A DNA stretch of 32,517 nt from IMG/VR virus record IMGVR_UViG_2718218100_000008, one strand, 5' to 3'. The position numbers and the translations under genes were made by a program. Positions 1 through 10,917 of this stretch are shown here, one piece after another. This DNA is from a virus. Lineage: Duplodnaviria > Heunggongvirae > Uroviricota > Caudoviricetes. Each line of letters starts with the position of its first letter. Within the stretch, counting starts at the first letter, position 1. A model generated the notes under the pieces. That model was not told where the DNA came from, did no database searches, and worked only from the letters and a program-made list of their open reading frames with translations.

Positions 1-1143
1 CTATGCTGTTTTGATATCTACGATAATCCAGTCTTTACCACGATCATCATTGTATCGGTCGGTCATTTTTCTGGATTTATGACCTAACAACTTTTGCGTA
101 TCCAGACCCTGTTCCCGATATAACCGTTCTGACAGAGATCGCTGCTCATGAAATGTGGGCGCAGTTCCTTGCTCCCATTTTATGCCACATTTTTCCCTGG
201 CCTTTTTAAAAGCCGTTGTAAGAGTATTTGCAGACACCTGGTCTCCTCTGTTTGCTTGAGAGGTAGTGTGACGGTAATGGACCAGATATTTACTAACAAC
301 AGCATCCCTGCACTGAGATATAACTTCACGAAGGGTAATATTCAGAGCATCGCATTTCAGGTTAAGCGGAATAGCAAGTTTTGAACCGGTTTTTTCCTGA
401 GTAATGTGCAACATGTCGTCCCAGATATCAGAGAATTTCAAATTGCAGATATCGCTTAAACGTTGTCCAGTGACAAGAGCAAGTAGCATCCCGCATTTTA
501 AATAGGGCTGCCGTCTGCTTACGCTGTCAAATATTGCCTGCCATTCGGGCAGTGATAATCTTTGGCGGTTTACTCGATTTCGCGGTTGTTTTGTTGCCTG
601 CGCTGGGTTAAATCCTGGCGGAACATGTCCTGCGTGTTGTGCTTCTTTGAAGACGTCGATCAACACCATTCTCACGACTTGCGCCATCCTGTTATGACCT
701 TCAGCCTTTACAGCATCAATTATTTCGGCAATATCAAGTGCGGTAATATCCTTGAGGTGTTGCATTCCACAATGCTCACGGAAAAGACGGATGGGTTTGC
801 CTTTTTGCCGATAGGAGTTGGGTCTTAGTTCATTATGTTGCAGCCTGTCCTCCTGGATAGAATTATATTTATCAAGCCATTCTGTCACCGTAATGTCTGA
901 GCGCCTGCCTTTCATTCTTTCCAGACGCTCATTGACGCTTAATATTTGTCGGGTACGTTGTTCAGCAATAATGGTATTTGCTTCAGTAGCAACTTGTTTT
1001 GCTTCATTCTCATCAGTTCCTAAGCTATGAAAACGACCGGATAGTGGATGTTTGTATTGCCAATATACCTTTCCGGTTCGCTTATCTAATTTGCAATATA
1101 AATTGGGTATAGAGATTTTGTGAGATCGGGGGCTAGCAGCCAT
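1..1143 (-). CDS. int: Phage tyrosine integrase (site-specific recombinase), complete; stop codon at window positions 1-3
   Basis: 380-aa ORF; C-terminal catalytic region shows the H-x-x-R (TFHEQRSLSERLY) and terminal Tyr (KSRKMTDRY) pattern of tyrosine recombinases; 11-bp overlap with the upstream excisionase-like ORF; sits at the prophage end. Confidence 0.9.
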   Translation of the reverse strand: MAASPRSHKISIPNLYCKLDKRTGKVYWQYKHPLSGRFHSLGTDENEAKQVATEANTIIAEQRTRQILSVNERLERMKGRRSDITVTEWLDKYNSIQEDRLQHNELRPNSYRQKGKPIRLFREHCGMQHLKDITALDIAEIIDAVKAEGHNRMAQVVRMVLIDVFKEAQHAGHVPPGFNPAQATKQPRNRVNRQRLSLPEWQAIFDSVSRRQPYLKCGMLLALVTGQRLSDICNLKFSDIWDDMLHITQEKTGSKLAIPLNLKCDALNITLREVISQCRDAVVSKYLVHYRHTTSQANRGDQVSANTLTTAFKKAREKCGIKWEQGTAPTFHEQRSLSERLYREQGLDTQKLLGHKSRKMTDRYNDDRGKDWIIVDIKTA

Positions 1144-3294: not shown

Positions 3295-3311
3295 TGAAAC
3301 AGGTGAGTTGA

Positions 3312-3346
3312 GTTCAAACTGTAGTACAATTCTCTCCAGTTTGAAC
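3312..3346. promoter_or_regulatory. Perfect 10-bp inverted repeat (GTTCAAACTG / CAGTTTGAAC, 15-nt spacer) about 15 bp upstream of the emrE start
   Basis: Read directly from the sequence; candidate operator or RNA hairpin; no T-run follows, so not a typical intrinsic terminator. Confidence 0.3.
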
Positions 3347-3361
3347 AGGAAAGAATATGTT

Positions 3362-3694
3362 ATGAACCCTTATATTTATCTTGGTGGTGCAATACTTGCA
3401 GAGGTCATTGGTACAACCTTAATGAAGTTTTCAGAAGGTTTTACACGGTTATGGCCATCTGTTGGTACAATTATTTGTTATTGTGCATCATTCTGGTTAT
3501 TAGCTCAGACGCTGGCTTATATTCCTACAGGGATTGCTTATGCTATCTGGTCAGGAGTCGGTATTGTCCTGATTAGCTTACTATCATGGGGGTTTTTCGG
3601 CCAACGGCTGGACCTGCCAGCCGTTATAGGCATGATGTTGATTTGTGCCGGTGTGTTGGTTATTAATTTATTGTCACGAAGCACACCACATTAA
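3362..3694 (+). CDS. emrE: Small multidrug resistance (SMR) efflux transporter EmrE
   Basis: 110-aa product MNPYIYLGGAILAEVIGTTLMKFSEGF...LLSRSTPH matches E. coli EmrE as recalled; four hydrophobic helices; first in-frame ATG chosen at 3362 (the ORF-track start at 3308 is an upstream extension). Confidence 0.9.
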   Translation: MNPYIYLGGAILAEVIGTTLMKFSEGFTRLWPSVGTIICYCASFWLLAQTLAYIPTGIAYAIWSGVGIVLISLLSWGFFGQRLDLPAVIGMMLICAGVLVINLLSRSTPH

Positions 3695-3938
3695 AAATAA
3701 TTTCTTTTAAAAGACTGCAATATGGCGGTTCATATCTTTACATGGGCCGCTTTTGTTAATGTTTTTAGTTTTTGTGTATTCTTTTGTGCCTTCAAGATTA
3801 TTGCGTAAGCAAATTGCAATACGATTATTGTTGTATATTCAAGATAGTGTGATCGTAATTGTCTTTTTAAATAAAAATTAAACAAAAATTATATCTCACC
3901 ACTAAGGTTTATAAAAGCATAAGTTAGCAGGTGTCACC

Positions 3939-5465
3939 ATGAAAAAAGCCATAGCATATATGCGATTTTCATCACCAGGTCAGATGTCTGGCGACTCATT
4001 AAACCGACAGAGAAGACTTATTGCTGAATGGTTAAAGGTAAATAGTGATTATTATCTTGATACCATAACATATGAAGATTTAGGATTAAGTGCATTCAAA
4101 GGAAAGCATGCACAATCAGGAGCTTTTTCGGAATTTTTAGATGCTATAGAGCATGGTTATATATTGCCAGGAACTACATTGTTAGTTGAAAGTCTGGACA
4201 GACTTTCAAGAGAAAAAGTCGGTGAAGCGATTGAACGTCTGAAATTGATTTTGAATCACGGTATTGATGTTATAACTCTTTGCGACAATACAGTCTATAA
4301 TATTGACTCTTTGAATGAGCCATATTCATTAATAAAAGCCATACTTATAGCACAAAGGGCAAATGAAGAAAGCGAGATAAAGTCAAGTCGGGTTAAATTA
4401 TCATGGAAGAAAAAACGGCAGGATGCACTGGAATCAGGTACGATTATGACGGCGTCTTGTCCGAGATGGCTCTCCTTAGATGACAAAAGAACGGCTTTTG
4501 TTCCAGACCCCGACAGGGTGAAAACTATTGAGCTAATTTTTAAACTCAGGATGGAAAGGCGCTCATTGAATGCAATAGCCAAGTATTTAAATGATCATGC
4601 TGTAAAGAATTTCTCAGGAAAAGAAAGTGCATGGGGGCCTTCTGTAATTGAAAAATTATTAGCGAATAAAGCTCTGATAGGTATATGCGTACCTTCATAT
4701 CGTGCAAGAGGGAAAGGGATAAGTGAAATCGCTGGCTATTATCCCAGAGTCATATCAGATGATTTGTTTTACGCTGTACAGGAAATTCGGTTGGCACCTT
4801 TTGGTATTAGCAATAGTAGCAAGAATCCTATGCTAATAAATCTACTTCGAACAGTTATGAAGTGTGAGGCTTGTGGTAATACCATGATTGTTCATGCGGT
4901 ATCTGGAAGTTTGCATGGCTATTATGTTTGTCCGATGAGAAGATTACATCGATGTGACAGGCCATCAATAAAGAGAGATTTGGTTGATTATAATATCATT
5001 AATGAATTGCTTTTTAATTGTAGCAAAATTCAACCAGTTGAAAACAAGAAAGATGCTAATGAAACTTTAGAGTTAAAAATTATTGAGCTTCAGATGAAAA
5101 TTAATAATTTAATCGTTGCATTGTCTGTCGCGCCTGAAGTTACCGCTATAGCAGAGAAAATAAGACTATTAGATAAGGAATTACGAAGAGCTTTGGTATC
5201 ATTGAAAACTTTGAAGAGTAAAGGTGTAAATTCATTCAGTGATTTTTATGCTATTGACTTAACCAGTAAAAATGGACGAGAGTTATGCCGTACACTTGCC
5301 TATAAAATATTCGAAAAAATCATAATTAATACGGATAATAAAACCTGTGATATCTATTTTATGAATGGCATTGTTTTTAAACACTATCCTTTAATGAAAG
5401 TAATATCCGCCCAGCAGGCGATAAGTGCTCTCAAATATATGGTTGATGGTGAGGTTTATTTTTGA
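3939..5465 (+). CDS. ybcK: Large serine recombinase (resolvase/invertase-type N-terminal catalytic domain plus recombinase domain and zinc ribbon)
   Basis: 508-aa ORF; N-terminal motif AIAYMRFSSPGQ with candidate catalytic Ser; later Cys cluster CEACGN...YYVCPMRRLHRCD typical of large serine recombinase zinc ribbons; AT-rich codon usage; same emrE-adjacent position as ybcK in DLP12. Confidence 0.85.
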   Translation: MKKAIAYMRFSSPGQMSGDSLNRQRRLIAEWLKVNSDYYLDTITYEDLGLSAFKGKHAQSGAFSEFLDAIEHGYILPGTTLLVESLDRLSREKVGEAIERLKLILNHGIDVITLCDNTVYNIDSLNEPYSLIKAILIAQRANEESEIKSSRVKLSWKKKRQDALESGTIMTASCPRWLSLDDKRTAFVPDPDRVKTIELIFKLRMERRSLNAIAKYLNDHAVKNFSGKESAWGPSVIEKLLANKALIGICVPSYRARGKGISEIAGYYPRVISDDLFYAVQEIRLAPFGISNSSKNPMLINLLRTVMKCEACGNTMIVHAVSGSLHGYYVCPMRRLHRCDRPSIKRDLVDYNIINELLFNCSKIQPVENKKDANETLELKIIELQMKINNLIVALSVAPEVTAIAEKIRLLDKELRRALVSLKTLKSKGVNSFSDFYAIDLTSKNGRELCRTLAYKIFEKIIINTDNKTCDIYFMNGIVFKHYPLMKVISAQQAISALKYMVDGEVYF

Positions 5466-7234: not shown

Positions 7235-7371
7235 TGTTTGAGTCTTATATGGCAGAACGTCTTCGCCACCGCTGGATGCGCCTGCGCTTATATCGTTTTC
7301 CTGGTTCTGTTTTGACCGATTACCGGATACTGAAGAATTACGCCAAAACACTGAAAGGAGCTGCCGCATGA
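7231..7371 (+). CDS. ylcG: Small ORF (46 aa, [46 protein letters not shown]), ylcG-like
   Basis: Fills the gap between rusA and the Q-position gene with start/stop overlaps on both sides; below the ORF-track cutoff. Confidence 0.45.
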
Positions 7372-8057
7372 ATACCCAATATTTACAGTATGTCCGCGAG
7401 CAACTCATTGTGGCTACCGCTGATTTGAGCGGAGCAACGAAAGGACAGCTTGAAGCCTGGCTGGAGCATGCACAATTTGATACTGGTACATACAAACGAA
7501 AGAAGCCGCGCATTCTGGATGAGGTAACTGGCAGGATGATTACGCTGGATAATCCGCCGATTTCCGGTAAGCAGTCGTACGCAAAAGGTTCATCCATTGC
7601 ACTGGTCAGCCAGGTTGAGTTCTCAACCTCGTCATGGCGCCGCGCGGTTCTGTCTCTCGAAGAACATCAGAAAGCGTGGTTGCTGTGGAGTTACAGCGAA
7701 AGTGTTCGCTGGGAACATCAGGTCACCATAACGCAGTGGGCATGGAGCGAGTTTAAGACTCTGTTGGGTACCAGGAAAATTGCAGGTAAGACACTGGAAC
7801 GTTTGAAGAAGTTGATCTGGCTGGCGGCACAGGATGTGAAGAACGAGCTGGCAGGGCGTAAGACCTATGAATACCAGGAGCTGGCATCACTGGTGGGAGT
7901 GACATCAAAAAACTGGTCTGAGACATTTACTGAACGCTGGGTTGCAATGAAACACATTTTTCTACAGCTTGATAGCCAAGCTTTATTGCTTTTAACGAAA
8001 ACACGTTCAAAACAAAAGACCACATTTTCACAGCAAGATATTGCAAAACTGGATTAA
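7368..8057 (+). CDS. Putative late-gene antiterminator (Q-position protein), not the lambda Q family
   Basis: 229-aa ORF in the position where lambdoid phages encode Q (after the nin genes, before the lysis cassette); contains no cysteine, so it lacks the Zn-finger of lambda Q; helix-turn-helix-like segment YQELASLVGVTSKNWSETF; call is by synteny. Confidence 0.5.
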   Translation: MNTQYLQYVREQLIVATADLSGATKGQLEAWLEHAQFDTGTYKRKKPRILDEVTGRMITLDNPPISGKQSYAKGSSIALVSQVEFSTSSWRRAVLSLEEHQKAWLLWSYSESVRWEHQVTITQWAWSEFKTLLGTRKIAGKTLERLKKLIWLAAQDVKNELAGRKTYEYQELASLVGVTSKNWSETFTERWVAMKHIFLQLDSQALLLLTKTRSKQKTTFSQQDIAKLD

Positions 8058-8069
8058 AAATCATATATT
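8041..8069 (+). promoter_or_regulatory. Candidate late promoter (pR'-like): -35 TTGCAA (8041-8046), 17-bp spacer, -10 TATATT (8064-8069)
   Basis: Sigma-70-like hexamers read directly; overlaps the 3-prime end of the Q-position gene as in lambda; predicted start ~8077 gives a ~190-nt leader to the terminator at 8239-8264. Confidence 0.3.
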
Positions 8070-8124
8070 TTATGTAAATCTGATATTTTGCCAATGTTGT
8101 ACGCACTGGCAGTAATCCAAATTC

Positions 8125-8160
8125 AAGCCCGAGGTTTAAAGCCTTGGGCTTTTCTGTTTC
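8125..8160 (+). terminator. Intrinsic terminator-like hairpin (AAGCCCGAGG / CCTTGGGCTT with one G-U pair) followed by TTTCTGTTTC
   Basis: Stem, loop and U-rich tail read directly from the sequence. Confidence 0.45.
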
Positions 8161-8238
8161 TGAACGGTGAGTAGCCTTCCAACCTACCCCAGCCAGGGGG
8201 TCTTCAGCTGTTGAGTTGATATTGCTTAGCCCTCTGTT

Positions 8239-8264
8239 GCCAGCTACATGCTGGCTTTTTTATT
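8239..8264 (+). terminator. Intrinsic terminator (GCCAGC-TACAT-GCTGGC followed by TTTTTTATT), candidate tR'
   Basis: Stem-loop plus T-run read directly; located ~100 bp upstream of the holin start. Confidence 0.55.
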
Positions 8265-8378
8265 CCAGGCTTGTGGGGAGCATCAACTCCGTGCTTTGTC
8301 GTTAAATTACCCCGTGAGCCTGATTTCTGACATTTAACGTCCCGGCCTTTTGTCGGCGGCGAAACATTGGCTATTCAT

Positions 8379-8684
8379 ATGCACGAAAAAGAGAGCCTTG
8401 CCGGAGCGTTCTGGCTCGTTTTGCTGATCATCGCAGGTTGGGGCGGTCTGGTCCGCTACCTGATAGATGTGAAGCAGAGTAAAGCAACGTGGAGTTGGAT
8501 AAATGCTCTGGCTCAAATAGTGGTATCAGGATTCACCGGTGTTATTGGTGGCCTGATCAGCATCGAAAGTGGATTCAGTATTTACATGATTCTCGCGACA
8601 GCGGGGATTAGTGGTGCGATGGGTTCGGTTGCACTGACGTACTTCTGGGAACGACTGACAGGGGTGAAAAATGCAAAATCTTAA
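8379..8684 (+). CDS. Putative holin with three predicted transmembrane segments; not lambda S
   Basis: ORF immediately upstream of and overlapping the endolysin gene; three hydrophobic stretches (FWLVLLIIAGWGGLV, WINALAQIVVSGFTGVIGGLISI, IYMILATAGISGAMGSVALTY) and a short charged C-terminus; first ATG at 8379, a possible TTG start at 8367 would add 4 residues. Confidence 0.6.
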   Translation: MHEKESLAGAFWLVLLIIAGWGGLVRYLIDVKQSKATWSWINALAQIVVSGFTGVIGGLISIESGFSIYMILATAGISGAMGSVALTYFWERLTGVKNAKS

Positions 8685-9147
8685 TCCTCAGCGTAAAGCC
8701 TTCCTCGATATGTTGGCGTGGTCAGAAGGAACGGATAACGGGCGACAACCGACACGTAACCACGGTTATGATGTTATTGTTGGCGGCGAACTGTTTACTG
8801 ATTACTCCGATCACCCTCGCAAACTTGTCACGCTACACCCCAAACTCAAATCAACAGCCGCCGGACGTTATCAGCTTCTTTCACGCTGGTGGGATGCTTA
8901 CCGTAAACAGCTTGGTTTGAAAGACTTCTCCCCCAAAAGCCAGGACGCAGTGGCATTGCAGCAGATTAAAGAGCGTGGTGCTTTACCTATGATTGATCGC
9001 GGTGATATCCGTCAGGCAATCGACCGTTGCAGTAATATCTGGGCTTCACTGCCGGGCGCTGGTTATGGTCAGTTCGAGCATAAGGCTGACAGCCTGATTG
9101 CAAAATTCAAAGAAGCTGGCGGAACGGTCAGAGAGAGTGAGGTATGA
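8671..9147 (+). CDS. R: Endolysin R (lytic transglycosylase)
   Basis: 158-aa ORF matching lambda R as recalled except the first ~7 residues ([20 protein letters not shown]...[11 protein letters not shown]). Confidence 0.95.
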
Positions 9148-9605
9148 GCAGAATAACCGCGATTATCTCCGCTCTGCTCATCTGCATCATCGTCTGCCTG
9201 TCATGGGCTGTTAATCATTACCGTGATAACGCCATTACCTACAAAGCCCAGCGCGACAAAAATGCCAGAGAACTGAAGCTGGCGAACGTGGCAATTACTG
9301 ACATGCAGATGCGTCAGCGTGATGTTGCTGCGCTCGATGCAAAATACACGAAGGAGTTAGCTGATGCGAAAGCTGAAAATGATGCTCTGCATGATGATGT
9401 TGCCGCTGGTCGTCGTCGGTTGCACATCAAAGCAGTCTGTCAGTCAGTGCGTGAAGCCACCACCGCCTCCGGCGTGGATAATGCAGCCTCCCCCCGACTG
9501 GCAGACACCGCTGAACGGGATTATTTCACCCTCAGAGAGAGGCTGATCACTATGCAAAAACAACTGGAAGGAACCCAGAAGTATATTAATGAGCAGTGCA
9601 GATAG
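9144..9605 (+). CDS. Rz: Spanin inner-membrane subunit Rz
   Basis: 153-aa ORF matching lambda Rz as recalled; N-terminal TM segment and coiled-coil region. Confidence 0.95.
9364..9546 (+). CDS. Rz1: Spanin outer-membrane lipoprotein Rz1, embedded in the +1 frame of Rz
   Basis: 60-aa ORF; lipobox LVVVGC; proline-rich ([15 protein letters not shown]); matches lambda Rz1 as recalled. Confidence 0.9.
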
Positions 9606-9636
9606 AGCTGCCCATATCGATGGGCAGCTCATGCAA

Positions 9637-9930
9637 TTATTGTGAGCAATACACACGCGCTTCCAGCGGAGTATAAATGCCTAAAGTAATAAAACCGAGC
9701 AATCCATTTACGAATGTTTGCTGGGTTTCTGTTTTAACAACATTTTCTGCGCCGCCACAAATTTTAGCTGCATCGACAGTTTTCTTCTGCCCAATTCCAG
9801 AGACGAAGAAATGGTGGGTGATGGTTTCCTTTGGTGTTACTGCTGCCGGTTTGTTTTGAACAGTAAACGTCTGTTGGGCACATCCTGTAATAAGCAGGGC
9901 CAGCGCAGTAGCGAGTAGCATTTTTTTCAT
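9637..9930 (-). CDS. bor: Bor lipoprotein (serum-resistance-associated)
   Basis: 97-aa ORF MKKMLLATALALLITGCAQQ... matching lambda Bor as recalled; signal peptide with lipobox LITGC. Confidence 0.95.
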   Translation of the reverse strand: MKKMLLATALALLITGCAQQTFTVQNKPAAVTPKETITHHFFVSGIGQKKTVDAAKICGGAENVVKTETQQTFVNGLLGFITLGIYTPLEARVYCSQ

Positions 9931-10062
9931 GGTGTTATTCCCGATGCTTTTTAAAGTTCGCAGAATCGTATGTGTAGAAAATTAAACAAACCCTAAACAA
10001 TGAGTTGAAATCTCATATTGTTAATATTTATTAATGTATGTCAGATGCGAAGGATCGTCACT

Positions 10063-10221: not shown

Positions 10222-10632
10222 TTAGCGTGGAAAGATTTGTGTAGTGTTCTGAATGCTCTCAGTAAATAGTAATGAATTATCAAAGGCATAGTAATATCTT
10301 TTATGTTCGTGGATATTTGTAACCCATCGGAAAACTCCTGCTTTAGCAAGATTTTCCCTGTATTGCTGAAATGTGATTTCTCTTGATTTCAACCTATCAT
10401 AGGACGTTTCTATAAGATGCGTATTTCTTGAGAATTTAACATTCACAACCTTTTTAAGTCCTTTTATTAACACAGTGTTATCGTTTTCTAACACAATGTG
10501 AATATTATCTGTGGCTAGATAGTAAATATAATGTGAGACATTGTGACGTTTTAGTTCAGAATAAAACAATTCACAGTTTAAATCTTTTCGCACTTGATCG
10601 AATATTTCTTTAAAAATGGCAACCTGAGCCAT
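10222..10632 (-). CDS. ybcV: Uncharacterized moron protein, YbcV-like
   Basis: AT-rich ORF; start set at the internal Met ([11 protein letters not shown]...) giving 136 aa by recalled homologue length; the ORF track allows an in-frame extension to 10755. Confidence 0.65.
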
Positions 10633-10917
10633 TGGTAAAACCTTCCATGTGATACGAGGGCGCGTAGTTTGCATTATCGTTTTTATCGTTTCAATCTGGT
10701 CTGACCTCTTTGTGTTTTGTTGATGATTTATGTCAAATATTAGGAATGTTTTCAATTAATAGTATTGGTTGCGTAACAAAGTGCGGTCCTGCTGGCATTC
10801 TGGAGGGAAATACAACCGACAGATGTATGTAAGGCCAACGTGCTCAAATCTTCATACAGAAAGATTTGAAGTAATATTTTAACCGCTAGATGAAGAGCAA
10901 GCGCATGGAGCGACAAA

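Follow-up and report, generated by a model that had tools for sequence, protein, structure and literature searches.

The lysis cassette of the window, i.e., the whole stretch of 32,517 nucleotides analysed here (IMG/VR virus record IMGVR_UViG_2718218100_000008), carries in the position of lambda S a holin of another family. This protein is very probably a canonical large-hole holin of the LydA family (PF16083, subgroup of the ST64T/L gp13 proteins), encoded by the first gene of a Q-dependent late operon, starting at ATG 8379, acquired as a cassette, and with its antiholin start decayed. The ORF is located on the plus strand and spans 8367 (TTG) or 8379 (ATG) to 8684, which gives 105 or 101 aa. 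The 101-aa form (8379–8684) is identical in sequence to RefSeq WP_000544528.1, ‘phage holin family protein’, known from E. coli O157, many other E. coli and PhiR47_2 (PV340567). The context of WP_000544528.1 is also that of the window (Q, holin, GH24 endolysin, RzpD and Bor). It is the same gene, and the annotated start alone varies, being the ATG in RefSeq and the TTG, i.e., the long form, in the PhiR47_2 record. A spacer of 310 nt separates the ORF from Q, and its 3′ end overlaps the start of the endolysin gene R by 14 nt in a different frame. Its general features are those of a holin, namely a small membrane protein with a charged C-terminus, encoded in a lysis cassette adjacent to an endolysin gene.

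The family assignment came from profile searches. The protein matched Pfam PF16083 (Phage_holin_3_3, LydA holin) with 77.6–77.7 bits against a cutoff of 28.4 (E = 8e-22), and the match covered positions 2–78 of the 78 in the profile. It also matched PHROG 785, ‘holin’, over residues 5–104 of 105 (E = 5.5e-40). When the Pfam search was opened to E = 10, the window protein matched PF16083 only, and lambda S matched PF05106 only (2.4e-30). No similarity to lambda S was detectable by BLASTP (E = 9), and hhalign of a 13-sequence family profile against lambda S gave a probability of 0.2%. A distant homology to lambda S, under the name of ‘holin superfamily III’, was considered and rejected; BLASTP, Pfam to E = 10 and hhalign yielded nothing beyond a six-residue coincidence at the N-terminus (MHEKES/MPEKHD). 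NCBIfam returned no family for any of the five proteins, and its sub-threshold CrcB match to the holin (E = 0.0096, 16.6 bits against a cutoff of 101) was treated as noise. The first-pass annotation had proposed that the ORF in the S position belongs to a family other than that of lambda S, and the searches bear this out, all family matches above threshold being to holin families.

Relatives were sought by tblastn among 50,697 phage records. The protein of PhiR47_2 is 100% identical, those of Klebsiella prophages are 84–88% identical, gp13 of the Salmonella phages ST64T, L and ST160 73–74% along its full length, that of Serratia phage Eta 66% and that of Hafnia phage Meifeng 54%. With P1 LydA, BLASTP found 26% identity over 77 aa (E = 1e-3), and hhalign of a 13-sequence family profile gave E = 1.2e-4 with a probability of 56%, leaving the C-terminal third unaligned. 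The two proteins share PF16083 membership and the motif GG-x-x-x-[YF]-L-[IM]-D-V-[KR] after TMD1. Judged from these alignments, the relationship to LydA is remote and the precise placement of the window holin is in the ST64T/L gp13 subgroup of PF16083. The same gene order, with the holin as the first late lysis gene overlapping the endolysin gene, was found in the window, ST64T, the Klebsiella prophage, Serratia Eta and the Hafnia phage. In ST64T, L and ST160, gp13 likewise is the first lysis gene after a Q-type antiterminator and overlaps the endolysin start, and it also has three hydrophobic segments and an upstream SD-sequestering hairpin. The ST64T/L gene differs in its canonical dual start, ATG-A-K-R-ATG with GGAGG, where the window has TTG-A-I-H-ATG with GGCGG, and its partner is a different endolysin (gp19, 132 aa), whereas the window holin is paired with a lambda-type R.

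Genetic data are available for two of these relatives. The lysis mutation 13-am43 of phage L is an amber mutation at the Gln codon 50 of gene 13 (PMC8022706), and this Gln is invariant in the holin family alignment. The genes for which hybridization and/or complementation with P22 was reported, as compiled in that paper, include the L lysis genes 13, 15 and 19 (PMC8022706). In P1 with lyz replaced by lambda R, LydA was the main holin cooperating with R (PMC9025707), and thus LydA behaves as a canonical large-hole holin. P1 LydA is reported to be a class II holin with two TMDs; it has a separate antiholin gene, lydB, and naturally works alongside a SAR endolysin (PMC9025707). Unlike P1, where lydB is downstream of lydA, the window has R directly after the holin gene; no separate downstream antiholin gene is present in its cassette, and there is no room for a lydB-like gene because R starts 14 nt before the holin stop. 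The lydB gene is a feature of the P1 system and not of the PF16083 family.

The membrane topology was predicted from hydropathy and charge. In the 105-aa numbering, TMD1 covers approximately residues 11–29, and a hydrophobic stretch of 49 residues (45–93) is interrupted by the turn I-E-S-G. The net charges are −1 for the N-terminus, +2 for loop 1, −1 for the turn and +2 for the C-terminus. By the positive-inside rule, these features suggest three spans with the N-terminus out and the C-terminus in, and they are compatible with a class I topology. A single-sequence AlphaFold2 model, of low confidence (pLDDT 66), has helices at 3–31, 35–64 and 68–93 in the 101-aa numbering, with breaks at K-Q-S and G-F-S; only the helix boundaries were taken from this model, which is too weak for a fold search. 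Hydropathy, the AlphaFold2 helices and the 14-nt overlap agree with the first-pass description of an ORF with three hydrophobic segments overlapping the start of R. A second ORF embedded in the holin gene as a possible antiholin (e.g., 8489–8611, 40 aa) was rejected, as it has neither a family match nor a start context and is also out of frame inside a gene under purifying selection. The window holin resembles lambda S in genomic position, size (101–105 aa, as compared with 105–107 aa), three hydrophobic segments, predicted N-out/C-in charge pattern, overlap of the 3′ end with R and an upstream SD-sequestering hairpin. It differs from S in that sequence and profile similarity are absent, the overlap with R is 14 nt instead of 17 nt, and a functional dual-start motif is lacking.

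The region upstream of the holin gene encodes the late-gene antiterminator Q (7368–8057, plus strand; PF06323, E = 1.4e-94; PHROG 304), which is not lambda Q-like at the DNA level; lambda DNA similarity is absent left of 8688. A candidate late promoter of the pR′ type (8041–8069, plus strand) overlaps the Q stop codon. It is a sigma-70-like TTGCAA-17-TATATT, recognized by a consensus match only (9/12), and its position fits the start of a short-RNA match at 8073. This Rfam match, to isrJ at 8073–8152, is sub-threshold (30.4 bits against a gathering score of 37, E = 0.008). The short leader region (8073–8160, plus strand) ends in a first intrinsic terminator with a 12-pair stem at 8125–8151 and a T-rich tail, and we infer that it is the analogue of lambda 6S RNA plus tR′, the target of Q antitermination. 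A second intrinsic terminator is located between Q and the holin gene (8239–8265, plus strand), GCCAGC-TACAT-GCTGGC followed by TTTTTTATT. The promoter-like site, the isrJ-like match and the two terminators (8125–8160 and 8239–8265) form the layout that would be expected for a Q-antiterminated late operon.

Downstream of the holin gene the cassette is lambda-like, as had been claimed in the first-pass annotation. The endolysin R, a lambda-type transglycosylase of 158 aa (8671–9147, plus strand; PHROG 90 ‘endolysin’), is identical to lambda R at 149 of 158 positions; residues 2, 3, 4 and 6 account for four of the nine differences. The i-spanin Rz (9144–9605, plus strand; PF03245, E = 5e-53) is identical to lambda Rz at 149 of 153 positions, and the o-spanin Rz1, embedded in Rz in the +1 frame (9364–9546, plus strand; PF06085, E = 2.8e-20), is identical at 58 of 60. 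The lipoprotein gene bor (9637–9930, minus strand; PF06291) follows, its product matching lambda Bor at 96 of 97 positions. Thus R, Rz, Rz1 and bor are 94–99% identical to lambda, and all of the lysis ORFs are intact. The N-terminus of R is hydrophilic and has no hydrophobic (SAR) segment, and the protein is 94% identical to the soluble lambda R.

The first-pass annotation had placed a recombination junction inside the 5′ end of R, with R matching lambda except for its first ~7 residues. The nucleotide alignment with lambda did place a boundary within the first R codons, at 8685–8688, but the point is not an arbitrary one, since it falls directly after the holin stop codon (8682–8684). In the megablast search against phage genomes, lambda similarity began at query position 589, i.e., window position 8688 and lambda position 45510; this is the base after the lambda S stop, S ending at 45509. 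To the left of this junction (junction A), and unrelated to lambda, are an SD-like GGGGTG for R (8660–8665, plus strand), the R ATG and R codons 2–5. The SD-like element was read from the sequence, inside the 3′ end of the holin gene and 5 nt upstream of the ATG at 8671, and it would serve as the ribosome-binding site of R. The R residues 2, 3, 4 and 6 differ from those of lambda because the R start and first codons come with the holin cassette. The junction is therefore ‘inside the 5′ end of R’ only because holin and R overlap; in terms of modules, it is the right end of the holin cassette. Comparison with another E. coli context, of the UTI89 type and with a different Q, puts the left edge at approximately 8330–8348. 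When E. coli genomes were surveyed with window positions 8300–8760 as the query, 1004 genomes matched the holin and the start of R, and ~690 further genomes matched only from window position 8680–8685 onward. The latter should carry this R behind some other holin, which makes junction A a recurrent breakpoint at the population level.

A second junction, missed in the first-pass annotation, is present within R. To its left the sequence is 85.6% identical to lambda (42 mismatches in 292 nt), and to its right 98.0% (20 in 1011 nt); the maximum-likelihood change point is at 8980, with a 2-lnL support interval of 8941–9011, a likelihood ratio of 61.6 and a Fisher p of 5.6e-15. By segment, the identity is 79% at 8688–8800, about 90% at 8801–9000 and 98% at 9001–9990. 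This step indicates that the 5′ two-thirds of R are an older, diverged R allele, while the 3′ third, together with Rz, Rz1 and bor, is nearly lambda. In other strains, the R C-terminus co-varies with the type of the downstream spanin.

The start regions were compared across ~20 homologous loci, and a profile scan of genome contigs gave 11 loci, which are enough for the start-codon comparison and too few for strong covariation statistics. ST64T, Enterobacter, Citrobacter, Dryocola and one Klebsiella prophage have ATG-GCx-AAA/G-CGT-ATG (M-A-K-R-M). The corresponding sequence is M-A-K-H-M in K. pneumoniae ATCC 13883 and phage 716R3, M-K-R-M in Serratia Eta and Erwinia, M-R-M in Hafnia Meifeng and M-T-R-M in Salmonella MS2 LVA. 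A dual-start motif, defined as two Met codons with 1–3 codons between them, at least one of these being Lys/Arg, was thus present in 14 other relatives, and Serratia sp. PL17 has a single start. All dual-start relatives have a strong GGAGG or GGGGG SD 3–6 nt before the first ATG, and the downstream ATG, equivalent to 8379, is kept in all ~20 relatives. The motif was found neither in the window allele, TTG-GCT-ATT-CAT-ATG behind GGCGG, nor in the UTI89-type E. coli allele, GCG-GCT-ATT-CAT-ATG (WP_000544527.1, one amino-acid difference). In comparison with the relatives, the window allele has TTG for ATG, I-H for K-R, with both basic residues lost, and GGCGG for the SD GGAGG. The TTG GCT ATT CAT at 8367–8378 (plus strand) aligns with ATG GCT AAA CGT of the relatives.

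A hairpin is predicted immediately upstream of these starts (8338–8361, plus strand; MFE fold of approximately −12 kcal/mol), a 9-bp stem with one bulge that holds GGCGG (8355–8359) in its 3′ arm. The sdi stem of lambda likewise buries the SD of S. Of the 14 family members that were folded, 13 are predicted to form an equivalent SD-sequestering hairpin, although their arm sequences differ. In these 13, the first start, or what remains of it, is led by an SD; Serratia sp. PL17, the one member without such a hairpin, has a single start. In the alignment of the 13 sequences, 92% of the cells pair, as compared with 40–63% when the partner is slid by 1–3 columns. The covariation is weak, with double-sided changes in two pairs only, and the E. 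coli alleles are distinguished by one compensatory change from A-U to G-C. When compared with shuffled sequences, single folds had unremarkable z-scores (−0.2 to −2.0). The conservation of the hairpin is suggestive, and the structure probably functions in translational control.

Several E. coli O157 chromosomes match the first 12 kb of the window at 100% identity, and in them the element adjoins icd. Its genes are in the order int, xis, a 5′-truncated O pseudogene, P, ren, emrE, ybcK, ybcN, ninE, ybcO, rusA and ylcG, followed by Q, holin, R, Rz/Rz1, bor, ybcV, ybcW, ylcI, nohD, terminase and later genes. The element lacks the immunity and N region, with xis joined to the truncated O and no cI, cro or N; hence it is a defective DLP12-like prophage, whose late region appears to be complete, and the lysis cassette may seldom, if ever, be expressed in this genome. 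Another O157 strain carries a version of the prophage from which even more has been deleted. The same cassette is found, 98.8% identical over 8100–9700, in PhiR47_2, a phage whose genome was deposited as complete and for which E. coli C is given as the host. Its sibling PhiR47.1 appears in a panel of temperate phages related to lambda. Of 5426 complete E. coli genomes, 1012 (about a fifth) carry the holin gene, in most cases with at least 99% identity. A comparison of two E. coli alleles (101 codons; 93–94% identical in DNA) yields 15 synonymous differences and one nonsynonymous codon, and by this count the holin protein is under strong purifying selection. The identical 318 nt in hundreds of genomes, together with the 15:1 synonymous bias, confirm that the pattern is not due to chance.

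These observations bear on three other readings of the gene. The first-pass annotation had likened the two candidate starts, both of which are present as it described, to a dual-start holin/antiholin arrangement. If this arrangement were functional, TTG 8367 would give an antiholin of 105 aa and ATG 8379 a holin of 101 aa, like S107 and S105 of lambda, and the hairpin would set their ratio. The TTG shares the reading frame of the ATG at 8379, and its position in the alignment is exactly that of the first ATG in the real dual-start motif of the relatives. It is located 7 nt after GGCGG, a good SD spacing, while ATG 8379 has no SD at normal spacing, its nearest SD-like element being 19 nt upstream; from the SD spacing, some or even most initiation could occur at TTG 8367. 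The SD-sequestering hairpin has also been kept with a compensatory change, the Serratia phage Eta homologue is annotated with a ‘possible dual start motif’, and the PhiR47_2 record uses the long form. However, the antiholin behaviour of lambda S107 and S21-71 depends on the extra positive charge at the N-terminus, and M-A-I-H, having no Lys/Arg where the relatives have K-R, K-H, R or T-R, would lack this charge even if the TTG were used. Both TTG and GGCGG are weakened forms of ATG and GGAGG, and RefSeq uses the ATG. Furthermore, the upstream start appears not to be under selection, because the UTI89-type sister allele has GCG there with an almost identical protein. A functional dual start is accordingly quite improbable. 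From the aligned start regions, we conclude that TTG 8367 is best read as a decayed relic of an antiholin start, that the window allele would effectively be single-start, and that it probably makes no antiholin.

It is also unlikely that the gene is an inert relic in a defective prophage, unexpressed, no longer part of lysis and intact only through recent acquisition, although the fusion of int/xis to the truncated O pseudogene, the loss of cI, cro and N, the more deleted version in another O157 strain and the weak appearance of both possible holin starts would all fit such a history. The excess of synonymous differences between alleles that have diverged by several percent in DNA argues against it, as do the intactness of every lysis ORF, the occurrence of the cassette in PhiR47_2 and the presence of the gene, mostly nearly identical, in so many complete genomes; in addition, a Q of matching specificity from a co-resident lambdoid phage could switch the cassette on. 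The third reading, that the ORF encodes a pinholin or a small non-holin membrane protein merely occupying the S position, is most improbable. It could draw on the natural pairing of P1 LydA, the Pfam namesake, with a SAR endolysin and on the sub-threshold CrcB match noted above, but pinholin systems combine a two-TMD holin with a SAR endolysin, whereas the window has three predicted hydrophobic helices, an R with a hydrophilic N-terminus and above-threshold matches to holin families only. Pinholes cannot release a soluble endolysin such as R, and LydA supports lysis with lambda R (PMC9025707).

The reading of a canonical large-hole holin is consistent with the following mode of action. The holin would be made from ATG 8379 as a protein of 101 aa with three transmembrane helices, N-terminus out and C-terminus in. 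If it acts like other holins, it would build up in the inner membrane and open large holes at a set time. Since R is soluble with a hydrophilic N-terminus, its partner holin should have to open holes that pass a folded cytoplasmic enzyme; the holes would thus release the signal-less transglycosylase R, and Rz/Rz1 would then disrupt the outer membrane. A cassette of ~350 bp (about 8330–8685), ending at the holin stop codon, would have brought its own hairpin and SD region together with the ribosome-binding site and first five codons of R.

The holin gene is already known, from its RefSeq holin annotation, a curated Pfam family and its occurrence in approximately a fifth of complete E. coli genomes. 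Lambdoid phages are textbook mosaics, in which holin, endolysin and spanin modules are mixed at gene boundaries, and the window cassette is an ordinary case of such module exchange. Beyond correct annotation, in which the holin start should be placed at ATG 8379 and not at TTG 8367, the finding matters little. The boundary of holin and R neatly illustrates why recombination between overlapping lysis genes takes place at such points: as the module boundary is located exactly at the holin stop, the holin cassette supplies the translation-initiation region of R. One point is mildly new: the antiholin start has been lost, but the SD-sequestering hairpin has not. Tentatively, and with slightly less than even confidence, we propose that the E. 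coli branch of the ST64T-gp13/LydA holins dismantled the antiholin start, kept the hairpin through compensatory substitutions and became a natural ‘S105-only’ holin, in which an sdi-like structure is re-used to throttle holin translation. The E. coli alleles and their M-A-K-R-M relatives offer a natural comparison for the contribution of an intrinsic antiholin to lysis timing. If the proposal is true, no intrinsic antiholin would take part in setting the lysis timing of a widespread lineage of E. coli prophages (19% of complete genomes).

The C-terminal ~25 residues of the endolysin R were found to co-vary with the type of spanin encoded downstream, lambda Rz versus DUF2570/LysC (9100-9147 in the window; ~2200-2301 in the homologous loci L019 and L020). 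Therefore, R has a further module boundary in its 3' end, the counterpart of that at the 5' end of the gene. In phage PhiR47_2 (PV340567), which carries the same holin cassette, one nucleotide is missing from a run of C residues in R (CTCCCCCAAAA versus CT-CCCCAAAA), which leaves the gene as two CDSs (3572-4047 in locus L001). For a genome deposited as complete, a homopolymer sequencing error is more likely than a true frameshift.

The N-termini of the holin family, in the window (8379-8396) and in loci L015, L016 and L021, were M-P-D-K-E, M-P-D-K-D-P, M-Q-D-K-E and, in the window, M-H-E-K-E. They are similar to M-P-E-K-H-D, the N-terminus of the S105 holin form in lambda and P22 (lambda S codons 3-8), but beyond this segment the S105 proteins are unrelated to the family of the window. 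The likeness could have arisen convergently, with both groups arriving at a short, acidic N-terminus in the periplasm. In the relatives with the dual-start motif M-A-K-R-M (L004, L007-L010 and L012-L014), a second small hairpin was predicted within the 12 nt separating the two start codons, in which AUAUG of start 1 pairs with CGUAU directly 5' of start 2. This hairpin might affect which of the two starts is used. An ambiguous start was also noted for the DUF1398 gene ybcV (10222-10755, minus strand), of which the ORF can be extended to 177 aa from a TTG, as compared with the 136-aa form in RefSeq.

The prophage adjoins icd. Its int gene (1-1143, minus strand) and xis are located within 1-2300, and a 5'-truncated O pseudogene (1473-2297) is joined directly to xis. 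The immunity, N and recombination region is entirely deleted, although no damage is apparent in the late genes, which extend from terminase to tail fibres. An emrE-type SMR efflux gene (3308-3694, plus strand) and ybcK, encoding a large serine recombinase of 508 aa (3939-5465, plus strand), are carried within the prophage between ren and the nin region, the same placement as in DLP12 of K-12.

Downstream of the antiterminator gene Q, an Rfam search gave a sub-threshold match to the Salmonella sRNA isrJ at 8073-8152 on the plus strand (30.4 bits, the gathering threshold being 37; E = 0.008), accompanied by a promoter-like site at 8041-8069 on the same strand. The 3' end of the match coincides exactly with the first terminator after Q. 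This segment looks like a short pR'-to-tR' leader transcript, an analogue of lambda 6S RNA, and the resemblance suggests that isrJ-type sRNAs may be late-leader RNAs of lambdoid phages.
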